From an uncultured Candidatus Saccharibacteria bacterium (lineage in GTDB: Bacteria > Patescibacteriota > Saccharimonadia > Saccharimonadales > Saccharimonadaceae): a stretch of 56,593 bases of DNA. The notes under the pieces were generated by a model. The model saw only the letters and a list, made by a program, of their open reading frames with translations. It did no database searches and was not told the DNA's origin. The stretch is from assembly GCA_964383465.1 (NCBI GenBank), contig CAYLGT010000005.1, positions 1-56,593 of the forward strand, written 5' to 3'. This document shows, piece after piece, positions 25,696-29,391 of this stretch (position 1 is its first letter; each line of letters begins with the position of its first letter). The position numbers and the translations under genes were made by a program.

Positions 25696-26997
25696 ATGAA
25701 TCCAAAAAAAGTTGCTATCGCTGGGTACGGAGTAGAAGGAAAAGCAAACTACACTTACTGGCGTGAGCTTGGATGCGAAGTCACCATCGTCGACGAACGA
25801 CAGCTAAGTCCGTACGATCTTCCGTATGGTGCAGCAGCTATTTTGGGAAAAAATGTGTTCAAAAAACTTGGGGATTTCGACCTCGTCATCCGCACAGCCA
25901 GTCTGCGCCCTGACAAAATCAAAACCAAAGGCAAAATTTGGTCAGCGACAAATGAGTTTTTCGAAAAGTGCCCAGCGCCAATCATCGGCGTGACAGGTAC
26001 GAAGGGCAAAGGCACGACGAGCAGTCTCATCGCGAGCATATTGCGTGCCGCAGGGAAGACTGTGCACTTGGTTGGCAATATCGGAACACCGGCGCTGGAA
26101 GTTCTTCCGAGTATCAAGTCTGGCGACGTTGTCGTCTTTGAGCTGAGTAGTTTTCAGCTGTGGGATATCGAGCGTAGCCCGCATGTTGCCGTAGTCCTCA
26201 TGATCGAGCCAGAGCACCTCGACATCCATAAAGACATGCAGGACTATGTGCTCGCCAAAGCTAACATTCGTAAGTATCAGGATGATGGCGATGTGTGTGT
26301 CTATAATGCGCAGAATGAGCTCTCGTCTGAGATCGCGCACAGCAGCAACCTACAAGGAGAGCTCGTCGCCTACAATGAAGAAGCTGGTGTCCACGTAGCT
26401 TCTGGCTACTTTTGTTTAGGGGAGGAAAAAATTTGCTCGACGGAGTTTGTGTCGCTTGCTGGTCCACACAACCTCGAAAATGCCTGTGCGGCGATTGGCG
26501 CTTGCCTTTCTTTTAAGCCAAGTGTGCAGGCAATTGAAGAGGGTCTGAACAATTTCGAAGGGCTGCCACATCGGATTCAGTTTGTGCGGGAGGTAGATGG
26601 GGTAAAGTACATCAACGACAGTTACTCATCAGCAGCGGGAGCAACGTTGGCCGCTTTGAAATCATTTGATGAACCCCAGGTGCTTATTTGCGGGGGATAC
26701 GATCGAGGTCTTAAGTACGATCGTTTTGCTAAAGACATGGCAAGTATAAAGAACCTCAAACACATCGTTTTGATGGGCCAAACAGCAAAGACTATCGAGA
26801 AAGCGATGAAAAAAGAGGGCCTGACGAACTACACCAGAATTGACTCAGGGAATTTCTCTGAAGTTTTTCGTACCGCCGTTCAGATCGCAAAGCCCGGCGA
26901 TGTTGTTCTGCTAAGTCCAGGCTGTGCAAGTTTTGATATGTTTGATAATTTCACGGATCGAGGTGAAAAGTTTATAAAGCTTGTGGAGTCGCTATGA
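25696..26997 (+). CDS. murD: UDP-N-acetylmuramoyl-L-alanine--glutamate ligase (MurD family)
   Basis: Rossmann-like N-terminus (IAGYGVEGKA), P-loop GVTGTKGKGTT and the Mur ligase C-terminal pattern. Confidence 0.88.
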   Translation: MNPKKVAIAGYGVEGKANYTYWRELGCEVTIVDERQLSPYDLPYGAAAILGKNVFKKLGDFDLVIRTASLRPDKIKTKGKIWSATNEFFEKCPAPIIGVTGTKGKGTTSSLIASILRAAGKTVHLVGNIGTPALEVLPSIKSGDVVVFELSSFQLWDIERSPHVAVVLMIEPEHLDIHKDMQDYVLAKANIRKYQDDGDVCVYNAQNELSSEIAHSSNLQGELVAYNEEAGVHVASGYFCLGEEKICSTEFVSLAGPHNLENACAAIGACLSFKPSVQAIEEGLNNFEGLPHRIQFVREVDGVKYINDSYSSAAGATLAALKSFDEPQVLICGGYDRGLKYDRFAKDMASIKNLKHIVLMGQTAKTIEKAMKKEGLTNYTRIDSGNFSEVFRTAVQIAKPGDVVLLSPGCASFDMFDNFTDRGEKFIKLVESL

Positions 26998-28295
26998 ATC
27001 AGCACGAAGTTTTTGTTTTTGAGCGATATAGTTTTGACCCAGTTCTAGGCCAGGCGACCTTTGAGTATAGCTTTGATGGCACACGTCAGTTCAAAGAGGT
27101 TGTGACGTTCGATACGACTGGAATGGTTGATCATAGTGCTCCAGCCTTCGAAGCTGCGATGCAACTAGCGTTCTTGCTGGCGGGGGTGTCATACTATAAG
27201 ACATTTCCGACTCGTTCGGTTAGTTTTAAAGACTTGCAATTAACTTCTGGGCAAGCAGATTTTTTGAATCACGTGTACCTCGAAGGTTTGAGCCAATTTA
27301 TATACGAAAACAAGCTAGGACTTGATGCTATCGTGCGCTTTGAGGCATCCTCGATGCAGCAACCAGAACCTCGTGTAGCCGGTGGTGAGGGTATGGTTTG
27401 CCTGCAGAGTGGCGGCAAAGATTCGCTGCTGCTTGCTAGTCTGCTCGACGAAGCTTCGGCTAGCTTTACTCCTTGGTATGTAGCCAGTGGAATGTTTCAT
27501 CCGTCCGTTCTCGACAGCCTTTCTGGTCCGCTGAGGACCATACACCGGCAGCTCGACAGCGAAGCACTCGCTACCGCCACGCGTGACGGCGGATATAACG
27601 GACATATACCAGTTACTTTTGTGCTCACGAGCTATGCCATCCTCGATGCGCTACTTCACGGCGAGAACACAGTCTTGCAGGCGATTGGTCATGAAGGGGC
27701 CGAGCCCCACGCCTATGTTGGCGATCTGGCAGTCAATCACCAATGGTCGAAAACTTGGGAAGCAGAGCAGTTGATGCAGCGGTATGTCAGCGAATACATT
27801 GCCGCCGACATTCGTGTCGGTTCGCCGCTTCGTTCTATGACCGAGCTAAAAATTGCCGAGCTGTTTGCTGCTCATGCATGGCAGAAATACGGTCATAGTT
27901 TTTCGTCATGCAACGTGGCAAATTATGGCCAGCAACATGACAACACGGTACTGACGTGGTGTGGCAATTGCCCAAAGTGTGCCAATAGCTATCTGCTGTT
28001 TGCGCCATTCGTTGCTCCCGATGAGCTGAGGTCGCTTTTTGGCGGGAGTGATTTGTTTGCAAAGGAATCCCTCACGGATGATTTCAAAGGGCTTTTGGGC
28101 ATCGATAACGTCATGAAGCCTTTTGAATGTGTCGGCGAAATCGATGAACTAAGAACCGCTTACCACATGGCTCGTTCACGTTACGGCGAAGAGACATATC
28201 GACTACCTTTTGATGTTCCGTATGCCGACTTTGACTACAATCGACACATGCCATCACAGTCGTGGGCTTCAGCGCTTATCGATCACGTATACTAG
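26994..28295 (+). CDS. PP-loop (SGGKDS) ATP-pyrophosphatase-family protein coupled to murD; possible MurL-like glycopeptidyl-glutamate epimerase
   Basis: CLQSGGKDSLLLASLL PP-loop motif, a C-terminal Cys cluster (CGNCPKC), and a start overlapping the murD stop (ATGA). Confidence 0.45.
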   Translation: MNQHEVFVFERYSFDPVLGQATFEYSFDGTRQFKEVVTFDTTGMVDHSAPAFEAAMQLAFLLAGVSYYKTFPTRSVSFKDLQLTSGQADFLNHVYLEGLSQFIYENKLGLDAIVRFEASSMQQPEPRVAGGEGMVCLQSGGKDSLLLASLLDEASASFTPWYVASGMFHPSVLDSLSGPLRTIHRQLDSEALATATRDGGYNGHIPVTFVLTSYAILDALLHGENTVLQAIGHEGAEPHAYVGDLAVNHQWSKTWEAEQLMQRYVSEYIAADIRVGSPLRSMTELKIAELFAAHAWQKYGHSFSSCNVANYGQQHDNTVLTWCGNCPKCANSYLLFAPFVAPDELRSLFGGSDLFAKESLTDDFKGLLGIDNVMKPFECVGEIDELRTAYHMARSRYGEETYRLPFDVPYADFDYNRHMPSQSWASALIDHVY

Positions 28296-28302
28296 ACAGT
28301 AC

Positions 28303-29391
28303 ATGCAACCACTTACCAAAAAACTTTCTGAACTTAGTCAGCACATCTTGGCAGCGTGTGAGCGACTCAACATAGATGCAAAAGCCAGAGAGCTAGCTAA
28401 TTTGGAAGTGGAGCTTGCCAAGCCAGATGTTTGGCAAGATTCCGCTAGGGCAGAGACACTCAGTAAAAACGCTGCTAGTTTACGTGCACAAACTGAAAAC
28501 TGGTTAGCACTCAAGTCGCAGTGCGCTGAGGTGGGTGACATGCTTTCACTGGGAGACGAGGCACTGCTTGGAGAGCTGGAGACGCAAGTTGAGACGCTCG
28601 AAAAAGAATTTACTGGTCTGAAAAAGGATTTACTATTCCAGGGCGAATACGATGACCACAATGCCATCGTCAAACTGAGCGCCGGTGCCGGTGGAACAGA
28701 TGCCCAGGACTGGACGGAAATGCTCGAGCGGATGTACCTGCGCTGGGGCGAAAAGTCTGGCATGAAAACCGAACTTGTCGAACGTAGCACCGGGGAAGAA
28801 GCTGGCATAAAATCAGCCACCTACAGTTTTTCTGGCCCCTACGCCTACGGCAAATTACGCGGTGAACACGGCGTCCATCGTCTGGTGCGTCTGAGTCCGT
28901 TTAACTCTGACAACCTGAGGCAAACCAGCTTTGCGCTCGTCGAAGTGCTTCCAGAGATCGATGCACCTGAAGAAGTTGAGATCGACGAAAAAGACCTAAA
29001 GATCGACGTGTACAGAAGTGGCGGTCATGGCGGCCAGTCGGTCAACACTACCGACTCAGCCGTGCGTGTTACGCACCTGCCAACCAACACAGTTGTTGCT
29101 ATACAGAACGAACGCTCACAGCTACAGAACCGCGAGACCGCTATGAAAATTCTTCGCAGTAAACTCGCGCAGATGAGGCTCGAGCAACATGCCGAGAAAC
29201 TGTCCGACCTACAGGCGGGCGAAAGTGCCAGTTGGGGCAACCAGATCCGCAACTATGTACTTCACCCATATACCATGGTCAAAGACACCCGTACCAAACA
29301 TGAAGACCGCGACGCCCAGGGCGTGTTGGACGGAAAACTAGACGAGTTCATAACCAGCTACTTAGACCAAAACTCAACTGAGAGAAGCTAA
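28303..29391 (+). CDS. prfB: Peptide chain release factor 2, single frame with no programmed frameshift
   Basis: SPF tripeptide (RLSPFNS) and GGQ (SGGHGGQSVNTT). TATACTAGA at 28288 lies inside the preceding gene's 3' end, 9 nt before the ATG. Confidence 0.93.
   Translation: MQPLTKKLSELSQHILAACERLNIDAKARELANLEVELAKPDVWQDSARAETLSKNAASLRAQTENWLALKSQCAEVGDMLSLGDEALLGELETQVETLEKEFTGLKKDLLFQGEYDDHNAIVKLSAGAGGTDAQDWTEMLERMYLRWGEKSGMKTELVERSTGEEAGIKSATYSFSGPYAYGKLRGEHGVHRLVRLSPFNSDNLRQTSFALVEVLPEIDAPEEVEIDEKDLKIDVYRSGGHGGQSVNTTDSAVRVTHLPTNTVVAIQNERSQLQNRETAMKILRSKLAQMRLEQHAEKLSDLQAGESASWGNQIRNYVLHPYTMVKDTRTKHEDRDAQGVLDGKLDEFITSYLDQNSTERS

Follow-up and report, generated by a model that had tools for sequence, protein, structure and literature searches.

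A murD-coupled MurL-like gene as a probable substitute for glutamate racemase in a Saccharibacteria genome

The single murD gene of an uncultured Candidatus Saccharibacteria bacterium overlaps a downstream gene for a MurL-like protein (ORF2), and we consider it highly probable that the two encode a MurD2/MurL-type D-Glu route that stands in for glutamate racemase in this genome. Both genes lie within the 56,593-nucleotide stretch of contig CAYLGT010000005.1 analysed here (the window; Table 1). The route itself is already known, if little studied, the MurD2/MurL early peptidoglycan route having first been described in Xanthomonas oryzae (PMC8788868, PMC5808125); the wide occurrence of the pair in candidate-phyla-radiation (CPR) bacteria is new. 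The reading draws on MurL homology, the predicted fold, the lack of another D-Glu source in the assembly, murD linkage and fusion, the exclusion of murI and altered MurD residues. MurD would add L-glutamate, not D-glutamate, to UDP-MurNAc-L-Ala; the co-translated MurL-like enzyme would then use ATP to adenylate the alpha-carboxylate of the terminal L-Glu at a QueC-like PP-loop site, with release of PPi. Adenylation would render the C-alpha proton acidic, Cys379 or another invariant residue may act as the base for epimerisation, and the pair would in this way replace glutamate racemase. We infer this substrate and chemistry for the window enzyme; our literature search found no assayed MurD2/MurL-type enzyme from any CPR organism.

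Table 1. Positions of the murD/murL-like gene pair and of its main sequence features in the window.
Feature	Position	Strand	Remarks
murD	25696..26997	+	433 aa; proposed to be a MurD2-like UDP-MurNAc-L-Ala ligase that adds L-Glu; TIGR01087, Mur_ligase_M, Mur_ligase_C
MurD Glu173	26212..26214	+	counterpart of Asp182 in E. coli and of Glu197 in X. oryzae MurD2
MurD Ser312	26629..26631	+	aligned with E. coli Thr321, a D-Glu alpha-carboxylate ligand
MurD Arg337	26704..26706	+	counterpart of Lys348 in E. coli and of Arg358 in X. oryzae MurD2
GGAG ribosome-binding site, then ATGA stop/start overlap (translational coupling)	26985..26997	+	direct sequence reading
murL-like gene (ORF2)	26994..28295	+	433 aa; NF041275, precomputed PF26299/PF26298, predicted QueC/QatC-like fold
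PP-loop S139-G-G-K-D-S144 (pyrophosphate-binding motif)	27408..27425	+	GGKDS invariant in 108/108 relatives
Four-Cys set C306, C323, C326, C329	27909..27980	+	putative Zn site with a structural role in the QueC-like fold
Cys379 in K-P-F-E-C-V-G-E motif	28128..28130	+	candidate catalytic base/acid for epimerisation

The initial annotation had placed the start of the 433-aa ORF inside the murD stop codon (ATGA), and we verified both the coordinates and the overlap. A GGAG stands ahead of the ORF2 start at 26985-26988, and the ORF2 ATG (26994-26996) shares bases with the murD TGA (26995-26997). Among 30 murD/murL pairs of relatives that are not fused, 26 show an overlap, which is 4 nt long in 18 cases (start codons were assigned heuristically for these counts), and the overlap is therefore not a chance feature. 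A promoter and terminator scan of the stretch gave nothing notable. The genome is a reduced one, as had been supposed, with 820,231 bases in 28 contigs and 96.4% completeness; the assembly lacks 3.6% of the marker genes.

HMM comparison of ORF2 with MurL, a check proposed in the initial annotation, gave a match to the MurL model NF041275 at 257.8 bits (E = 1.4e-76), with residues 3-393 falling on positions 6-393 of the 447 in the model. No other PP-loop family of NCBIfam or Pfam was matched at E <= 0.1, and no other family whatever at E < 0.006. The score is below the NCBI equivalog cut-off of 700 bits for NF041275, a model built on Xanthomonadales, which makes ORF2 a family member and not an equivalog by the NCBI rule; the same cut-off was reached in none of 151 genomes of the class (Saccharimonadia) and none of 251 genomes of the phylum. 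A Pfam scan of ORF2 gave no match because PF26298 and PF26299 were absent from the Pfam copy scanned, and a protein identical to ORF2 (P0001) has precomputed PF26299 (MurL_N) and PF26298 (MurL_epimerase_C) assignments. Used alone as a query against PDB sequences, ORF2 found no meaningful match. One locus name given earlier had to be corrected: X. oryzae MurL is XOO_1319, and XOO_1320 is MurD2 (PMC8788868).

The AF2 model of the MurL-like protein (pLDDT 93.5) predicts a QueC-like PP-loop ATPase fold nearest to that of QatC, and among solved structures its best counterparts are QatC (PDB 9y01/9y02, from the anti-phage system QatABCD), QueC and Cap9. Its SGGxDS motif, predicted Rossmann-like fold and four-Cys site are those of the QueC-like branch of the PP-loop ATP pyrophosphatase superfamily. 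The SGGKDS PP-loop was correctly recognised in the initial annotation; according to excerpts of PMC13279940, the same motif in QatC binds the beta and gamma phosphates of ATP, and a profile built from the MurL-like proteins finds TtuA, in its PP-loop region (E = 6e-4). The CxxCxxC motif described earlier is also real (C323-x2-C326-x2-C329), but 'near the C-terminus' was loose wording for a position ~105 residues away from it. C306 is the fourth Cys of this set. Of 108 relatives, 106 have all four and two have lost the set entirely; by analogy with the equivalent four-Cys Zn site of QatC and QueC, it is probably a structural Zn site. Cys379 is present in 107 of the 108 relatives, the remaining row being a gap. 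His249 and Lys253 are further candidate bases, and Ser139 and Asp143 are predicted to belong to the ATP site. As modelled, the fold fits carboxylate adenylation and offers a mechanistic frame for MurL, which reviews describe as lacking known conserved domains (PMC8788868, PMC5808125).

With QatC, QueC and Cap9 as the nearest solved structures, and with one JGI record (P0056) labelling a relative 7-cyano-7-deazaguanine synthase, ORF2 might instead be a QueC/QatC-type PP-loop enzyme working outside the cell wall, for example on nucleobases or in defence against phage, and its place beside murD would then be accidental. However, sequence identity between the MurL-like protein and these three is 13-15%, HMMER and PADLOC found no match between them, and neither Pfam nor NCBIfam matched ORF2 to QueC or QatC, no QueC model being among its matches at E <= 0.1. 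The gene sits among cell-wall and cell-division genes, not with qatABD, and none of qatA, qatB or qatD is among its neighbours. Together with the full-length MurL match and the linkage and fusion to murD described below, these observations make such a role extremely unlikely. The proposed MurL substrate would be the carboxylate of a UDP-MurNAc-dipeptide, not 7-carboxy-7-deazaguanine.

We searched the genome for murI and for a D-amino-acid transaminase, as the initial annotation had advised, and found neither: TIGR00067 (murI), PF01177 (Asp/Glu-racemase fold), TIGR01121 and PF01063 (class IV aminotransferase) gave 0 matches at thresholds of E <= 0.1 or 0.001, and each of these searches gave matches in 10-13 of 14 control genomes. 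The genome does encode MurE and MurC-, MurF- and MurT-like ligases. Among murD-bearing genomes of the class, 32/103 lack both MurL and any strong MurI match, and the absence of murI alone is therefore no proof that a replacement is needed. Class IV aminotransferases occur in 29/151 class genomes and are spread alike over MurL-positive, MurI-positive and 'neither' genomes; with a presence independent of MurL/MurI status, they were rejected as a complementary D-Glu source. Weak TIGR00067 matches in seven MurL-positive relatives were likewise rejected as murI after six of them (all but G119) were examined, five being of the TIGR00035 Asp-racemase type and one amounting to a 30-bit match only.

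MurL is found in 34/151 sampled Saccharimonadia genomes and 37/251 sampled genomes of the phylum. It directly adjoins murD on the same strand in 32/34 MurL-positive class genomes, and in 79 of the best 80 MurL loci from species-representative genomes; 19 of these 79 are fusions, in both gene orders. Mur ligase domains were also present in 8/8 of the fusion-length database representatives tested. Such fusions hint that MurD may pass the intermediate straight on to MurL. Conversely, murI and murL are mutually exclusive: a strong TIGR00067 match (E <= 1e-20) was found in 0/34 MurL-positive class genomes vs 40/117 others, and the corresponding figures in the phylum sample were 0/37 MurL-positive genomes vs 96/214 others. 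Within the family of the window the gene order is secA-M16-murD-[X]-prfB-ftsE, where slot X lies between murD and prfB. The window and G116 have murL in this slot, G026 and G125 have murI there on the opposite strand, and in G083 the slot is empty. We conclude that murI and murL have replaced one another repeatedly, which is newly seen here.

These data also bear on the explanation that a glutamate racemase or another D-Glu source escaped detection, because it lies in the 3.6% not assembled or because it has diverged too far, and that the MurL pair is redundant. An assembly of 28 contigs at this completeness leaves room for such an omission, and the TIGR00035 Asp-racemase-type enzymes of some MurL-positive relatives might act on Glu. 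Set against this are the four empty family searches, the absence of murI from all MurL-positive genomes in both samples, and the slot beside murD, which holds murI in sister genera and murL here, in a fully assembled stretch. We regard a missed source as very unlikely.

The residues of MurD that contact Glu provide a separate line of evidence for the MurD2/MurL-type route. In X. oryzae MurD2, E197 and R358 set L-Glu specificity, and the E197D/R358K double mutant turns to D-Glu (PMC8788868). Alignment with E. coli MurD gives the window MurD Glu and Arg at both specificity positions. Glu at position 182 (E. coli numbering) does not discriminate within the class, being common in the MurDs of murI-bearing Saccharibacteria. 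More informative are Thr321 and Lys348, which according to excerpts of PMC9780078 bind the D-Glu alpha-carboxylate. Thr321 is kept in 40/40 MurDs of MurI-bearing or 'neither' genomes vs 9/32 murL-linked MurDs; position 348 is Lys in the same 40/40, and Arg in 22/32 murL-linked MurDs and in 63/78 MurDs across the CPR loci (from the best 80 loci). The Thr321+Lys348 pair as such is found in 41/41 MurDs without a murL link, in 0/32 murL-associated MurDs and in 0/78 MurDs across the CPR loci (from the best 80 loci), and its loss with murL goes in the same direction in 5/5 phylogenetically independent pairs. In close relatives of the window's pair the change is mild, with Lys348 kept and Thr321Ser as the sole departure from the canonical pair. 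Where X. oryzae MurD2 has P433 and F435, the window MurD has Ala and Phe; these are weak markers, P433A and F435L having left MurD2 stereospecificity unaltered (PMC8788868). Judged by its Glu/Arg pair and its lack of Thr321/Lys348, the window MurD is probably specific for L-Glu. The initial suggestion of a MurL-type enzyme coupled to murD, with L-Glu ligation followed by epimerisation, is thus supported by the MurL match, the absence of murI and the Glu/Arg pair of MurD.

Several observations point the other way, towards MurD as an ordinary D-Glu ligase supplied with D-Glu by the host or environment, with the MurL-like enzyme as an accessory that corrects mis-ligated L-Glu or salvages L-Glu-containing precursors. 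The murD product, with its Mur_ligase_M and Mur_ligase_C domains, clears the D-Glu-ligase equivalog model TIGR01087 (319.9 bits; cut-off 211.95), which speaks against the L-Glu reading. Its branch in the tree lies within the vertical radiation of Saccharimonadia MurDs, surrounded by those of relatives that have murI, and within the class it falls in a set of 11 from its own family that comprises 8 canonical and 3 linked MurDs. Arg348 by itself is compatible with D-Glu use, as in Streptococcus mutans MurD (PMC8788868), and the group may have some other D-Glu supply, given the 32 relatives without MurL or a strong MurI match. Yet every murL-associated MurD has lost the Thr321/Lys348 pair while all the others keep it, murL and murI are mutually exclusive and use the same slot, and fusion to the sole MurD would be unexpected for an accessory enzyme. 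An ordinary MurD with an accessory partner is therefore improbable in our judgement.

If the MurD/MurL pair works as proposed, the encoded route fills an apparent gap in cell-wall synthesis (no murI), and host dependence for D-Glu need not be invoked. The murI/murL swaps would provide enzymology with matched natural MurD pairs for dissecting stereospecificity. A broader joint reading, which we put forward tentatively as somewhat short of an even chance, is that repeated switches of MurD from one Glu enantiomer to the other took place within one class, through its alpha-carboxylate ligands Thr321 and Lys348, in step with murI/murL swaps in one slot beside murD, with two L-Glu solutions (Arg348, or Ser/Ala321 with Lys348 kept) and with MurL as a QatC-like enzyme. 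If true, this would give a first chemical lead for the QatC reaction: QatC would activate a peptidyl or amino-acid carboxylate, not a deazaguanine.

The window pair resembles X. oryzae MurD2/MurL in the adjacency of the genes, the absence of murI and Dat from the genome and the fit of ORF2 to the MurL family model, and its MurD resembles MurD2 in the specificity residues and in Phe at the fourth named position. It differs in gene order (murD then murL), in the ATGA overlap, in a MurL score far below the equivalog cut-off (a comparison made via the family model) and in having Ala for Pro433. The MurD signature nearest to that reported for MurD2 (E/D, R, P, Y) belongs to a deep clade of murL-then-murD pairs, and the window MurD lies outside this clade. 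MurI activity has been reported for Ca. Saccharimonas aalborgensis (Penalver et al. 2024, as cited in a passage of PMC11974145). The MurI route of Saccharibacteria serves the same end, D-Glu in the stem peptide, and in sister genera from the same slot beside murD; unlike MurL, MurI is an unrelated cofactor-independent enzyme acting on free Glu, and its partner MurD keeps Thr321/Lys348.

Reviews hold the MurD2/MurL route to be present in relatively few genera and on that ground regard it as a narrow-spectrum antibiotic target (PMC8788868). In contrast, the counts above make a MurD2/MurL-type pair common in Saccharimonadia and in the phylum, and a CPR host such as that of the window is absent from the distribution given in the reviews (PMC8788868, PMC5808125). 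Database clusters of the MurL family also occur in several other phyla, and the best 80 MurL loci are nearly all from CPR bacteria. Some MAGs among these 80 loci are labelled 'Gammaproteobacteria'; their genomes are ~1 Mb and their MurL scores 335-397 bits.

Comparison of ORF2, the murL-like gene product, with MurL of the MurD2/MurL pathway, which the initial annotation had proposed, gave a match to the family model NF041275 (E = 1.4e-76, 257.8 bits; residues 3–393 aligned to model positions 6–393 of 447), short of the equivalog cut-off, a value of 700 based on Xanthomonadales. A Pfam scan with a library lacking PF26298 and PF26299 returned no match to ORF2. An identical protein in a large protein collection bears precomputed PF26298 and PF26299 (MurL_epimerase_C and MurL_N; names per ESM Atlas, Pfam 38.1). 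The nearest ESM Atlas clusters carry automatic epimerase family names, with Saccharimonadota, Pseudomonadota, Acidobacteriota, Actinomycetota, Bacteroidota and Bacillota as their commonest phyla, and database annotation (Pfam 38.1, automatic names) already assigns Saccharimonadota proteins to the MurL family. An exhaustive HMMER search matched 2131 cluster representatives at E ≤ 0.001; the number falls to 1529 at E ≤ 1e-10 and to 577 at E ≤ 1e-30. MurL is therefore a sizeable family already known to databases. The MurD2/MurL pathway itself has been known since 2017, and its distribution is described as limited: it is listed for Xanthomonadales, Micromonosporaceae and a few Alphaproteobacteria, and orthologues of low similarity are noted in cyanobacteria, a fungus and an amoeba (PMC8788868, PMC5808125). 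We rate the window's pair as belonging to this known kind. Full-text literature searches, with subscription journals and preprint supplements outside their scope, returned no paper in which MurL or MurD2 is connected with Saccharibacteria or the candidate phyla radiation (CPR), and the words MurL, epimerase and peptidoglycan are absent from the QatC paper (PMC13279940) and from a 2026 QueC-family review. What seems new is the breadth of the murD/murL pair across CPR, the strict exclusion between murL and murI, a single slot shared by the two genes with repeated replacement, and a Thr321/Lys348 signature in MurD together with a QatC-like fold in MurL.

The AlphaFold2 model of ORF2 (20-sequence alignment; mean pLDDT 93.5, pTM 0.93) had as top Foldseek matches QueC (2pg3, 3bl5), QatC (9y01, 9y02), YcfA, Cap9, NAD synthetases and TtuA. 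At the sequence level, a link to PP-loop proteins was found through the family profile only and over the motif only (TtuA, E = 6e-4). According to PMC13279940, QatC has a QueC core whose SGGxDS motif holds the ATP beta and gamma phosphates, as well as a Zn site of four Cys, and it is extended by sheet and helix at the N-terminus and by helices at the C-terminus; QueC and Cap9 use a carboxylate substrate and ATP, and the QatC reaction is still unresolved there. X. oryzae MurL requires ATP and Mg2+, forms AMP and acts only in the L to D direction; it is said to lack "known conserved domains", and adenylation of the alpha-carboxylate has been proposed (PMC8788868, PMC5808125). The QueC/QatC-like fold provides a structural basis for that proposal. 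The PP-loop and the CxxCxxC cluster pointed out in the initial annotation were both located in ORF2 (S139-GGKDS144 and C323-x2-C326-x2-C329), together with C306 as a fourth conserved Cys. Among 108 MurLs, GGKDS, G203, H204, P206, H249, Q250, K253, S305, N307 and K328 are invariant, and C379 is present in 107. The four-Cys set is present in 106, and the other two lack all four; this joint loss argues for a structural role of the four Cys, as in QueC. The two homologues concerned (L038 in genome G128, L040 in G044) sit on long branches and keep the PP-loop and Cys379. Adenylation of the C-terminal residue of an N-acyl peptide would make it easy to deprotonate, possibly via an oxazolone, and the candidate base would be one of the invariant or near-invariant residues Cys379, His204, His249 or Lys253.

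The overlap of the ORF2 start with the murD stop, also part of the initial annotation, holds in the window sequence, and GGAG lies five bases 5' of the ORF2 ATG. The pair lies in a closely spaced string of genes running in one direction: secA, M16 peptidase, murD, ORF2, prfB, ftsE, ftsX and a CHAP-domain protein. The prfB frame is single and open and contains PCRF and RF-1 domains; a Met in the same frame, about 31 codons further in (near 28303), would put its start just past the murL stop.

Features of the murD–murL locus in the window
Feature	Position	Strand	Remarks
ORF1, murD, 433 aa	25696–26997	+	TIGR01087 319.9 bits, cut-off 211.95; Mur ligase middle and C-terminal domains
ORF2, murL-like, 433 aa	26994–28295	+	start ATG inside TGA of ORF1
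prfB, as listed	28210–29391	+	TTG start overlapping the murL end

Linkage of the two genes was examined in 151 genomes of the window's class (class sample), where the MurL model matched in 34 genomes and murD in 103. Directly adjoining murD and murL on the same strand were found in 32 of the 34; the exceptions have the genes on separate contigs (G007) or as fragments (G135). The genes overlap in 26 of 30 unfused class pairs, by 4 nt in 18 (start codons chosen heuristically). A scan of species-representative genomes with the MurL alignment gave at least 583 loci. The best 80 of these are almost all from CPR metagenome-assembled genomes (Saccharibacteria, Parcubacteria, Gracilibacteria, Peregrinibacteria/Peribacteria, Uhr-, Moran-, Taylor- and Roizmanbacteria, and others), and 79 have a same-strand adjacent MurD-like ORF, arranged as murD then murL (43), murL then murD (17), MurL-MurD fusion (16) or MurD-MurL fusion (3). 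This set and the class sample overlap, because at least five loci come from the same genomes (zero-length pairs in the tree). Of the best 150 of the 2131 database representatives, 17 are 796–883 aa long, and all eight fusion-length representatives tested have a second half with Mur ligase domains, both orders being represented. MurL matches with in-frame stops were seen in G043 (L034; two TAA, with a split copy and a 333-nt gap to murD) and G119 (L045; one TAA). These copies may be decaying; weak racemase-family matches occur in both genomes.

E. coli MurD D182, K348, A414 and L416 correspond to E197, R358, P433 and F435 of X. oryzae MurD2, in which the E197D/R358K double mutation leads to D-Glu use and P433A and F435L are without effect (PMC8788868). 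The D-Glu alpha-carboxylate is bound by Thr321 and Lys348 and the gamma-carboxylate by Ser415 and Phe422, according to PMC9780078. In an alignment of 74 class MurDs with E. coli K-12 MurD as reference, the window's MurD has Glu, Tyr, Ser, Arg, Ala, Ser, Phe and Phe at E. coli positions 182, 319, 321, 348, 414, 415, 416 and 422. It thus resembles X. oryzae MurD2 in both validated determinants (Glu at 182, Arg at 348) and in Phe at 416. Thr321 and Lys348 occur together in 31/31 MurDs of MurI genomes and in 9/9 sampled from genomes with neither MurI nor MurL (39 of these 40 have Tyr422), and in 0/32 class MurDs encoded beside or fused to murL (linked MurDs). In the linked MurDs, position 348 is occupied by Arg (22 MurDs), Lys (9) or Asp (1); Thr321 remains in nine, every one with Arg348. 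Of 79 linked MurDs in the wider CPR set, 78 were readable and none had Thr with Lys (Arg348, 63; Lys348 with Ser or Ala321, 13; Ser348, 2). Position 182 (Asp or Glu) did not discriminate between MurD groups within the class. Because Thr321/Lys348 is altered and Ser415 is retained throughout, the change is limited to the chirality-sensing part of the pocket. In close relatives of the window's pair, Lys348 is retained and the main difference is Thr321Ser. Genome G094 encodes an additional unlinked MurD besides its murL-murD pair, and this second MurD shows the canonical Thr/Lys/Tyr signature (L011, L046); the second Mur-ligase-like ORF of G088 is highly divergent and lacks the MurD catalytic His and Lys (L019, L020).

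The MurD tree contained 74 rows, with a contig-end fragment (L021) and the divergent non-MurD ligase (L020) excluded. The main Saccharimonadia clade of the quick tree excludes six MurDs of the murL-then-murD order; the remaining murL-associated MurDs are interspersed with canonical ones. In the careful tree, the window's MurD and two other linked MurDs form a supported trio (97/95) nested within a supported set of 11 that contains eight canonical MurDs (98/93); so nested, the window's MurD could in principle still accept D-Glu. The linked label requires 11 changes on this tree (bootstrap 5–95%: 10–12), at least six of them forced by supported branches, and a single origin was seen in 0/200 bootstrap trees, with the bootstrap not fully settled. 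Constraining the 32 murL-associated MurDs (31 linked rows plus the unlinked MurD of MurL-positive G007) to one clade was rejected (log-likelihood difference 619.5, p-AU = 6.6e-8). Association with murL and lack of Thr321 plus Lys348 coincide in 73/73 tree rows, and 5/5 independent pairs on supported branches are concordant (p = 0.0625, though this is the best result possible). The quick MurL tree (108 rows) splits largely by gene order; the clade of 28 that contains the window's MurL has full support and consists of murD-then-murL or fused forms. The trees being unrooted, murI could have replaced murL or murL could have replaced murI.

The genome-wide check for murI and a D-amino-acid transaminase suggested in the initial annotation detected neither: across the whole assembly (820,231 bases, 28 contigs, 96.4% complete, 0.34% contamination) there was no match to glutamate racemase (TIGR00067), D-amino-acid aminotransferase (TIGR01121), the Asp/Glu-racemase fold (PF01177, E ≤ 0.1) or class IV aminotransferase (PF01063, E ≤ 0.1), models that each matched in 10–13 of 14 control genomes. 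The genome has one murD and further Mur-ligase paralogues, MurE (401.7 bits) and MurC-like, MurF-like and MurT-like proteins; the organism is therefore equipped for a D-Glu-requiring stem peptide. The MurT-like paralogue (G000:C24, locus L005:1360-2646) matches a lipid II isoglutaminyl synthase subunit model at 187.5 bits, under its cut-off; it hints at later amidation of the D-Glu alpha-carboxylate.

Matches to TIGR00067 were present in 50 genomes of the class sample and reached E ≤ 3.1e-21 in 40; none of the 34 MurL-positive genomes was among these 40. Weak matches (1e-5 to 1e-11) occurred in seven MurL-positive genomes; the six inspected (all but G119) were rejected as murI, five being of the TIGR00035 Asp-racemase type and one a 30-bit glut_race match only. 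In 251 genomes of the phylum, at E ≤ 1e-20 for both, MurL was found in 37 and MurI in 96, including unpublished genome G302, with an overlap of 0 genomes versus ~14 expected by chance (two lists compared by reading; relatives are non-independent). In murI-bearing relatives, murI usually adjoins murD convergently. The order secA-M16-murD-[X]-prfB-ftsE is conserved in the window's family: X is murL in the window and G116; in G026 and G125 it is murI, encoded on the opposite strand; and in G083, whose murI lies ~65 kb off, the slot is empty. We conclude that murL and murI are alternatives for one slot.

By our count, 32 of the 103 class genomes with murD lack both MurL and a strong MurI match (e.g., G050, G092, G122, G053, G131, G001, G023), so that other D-Glu sources may exist in the group; class IV aminotransferases occur in only part of these genomes. 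Asp-racemase-type amino-acid racemases (TIGR00035, 129–168 bits; also near the cysteate racemase model) were found at L167–L171, L173 and L174 in G104, G063, G094, G043, G007, G080 and G096, including five MurL-positive Saccharimonadia; the PF01177 search (E ≤ 0.1) found none in the window's genome. One group of genera has a class IV aminotransferase gene at a conserved distance of 5–6 kb from murD (G081:C7, G147:C35, G144:C5, G078:C1, G102:C11, G069:C22, G063:C12), and this gene might encode a D-amino-acid transaminase rather than a branched-chain type.
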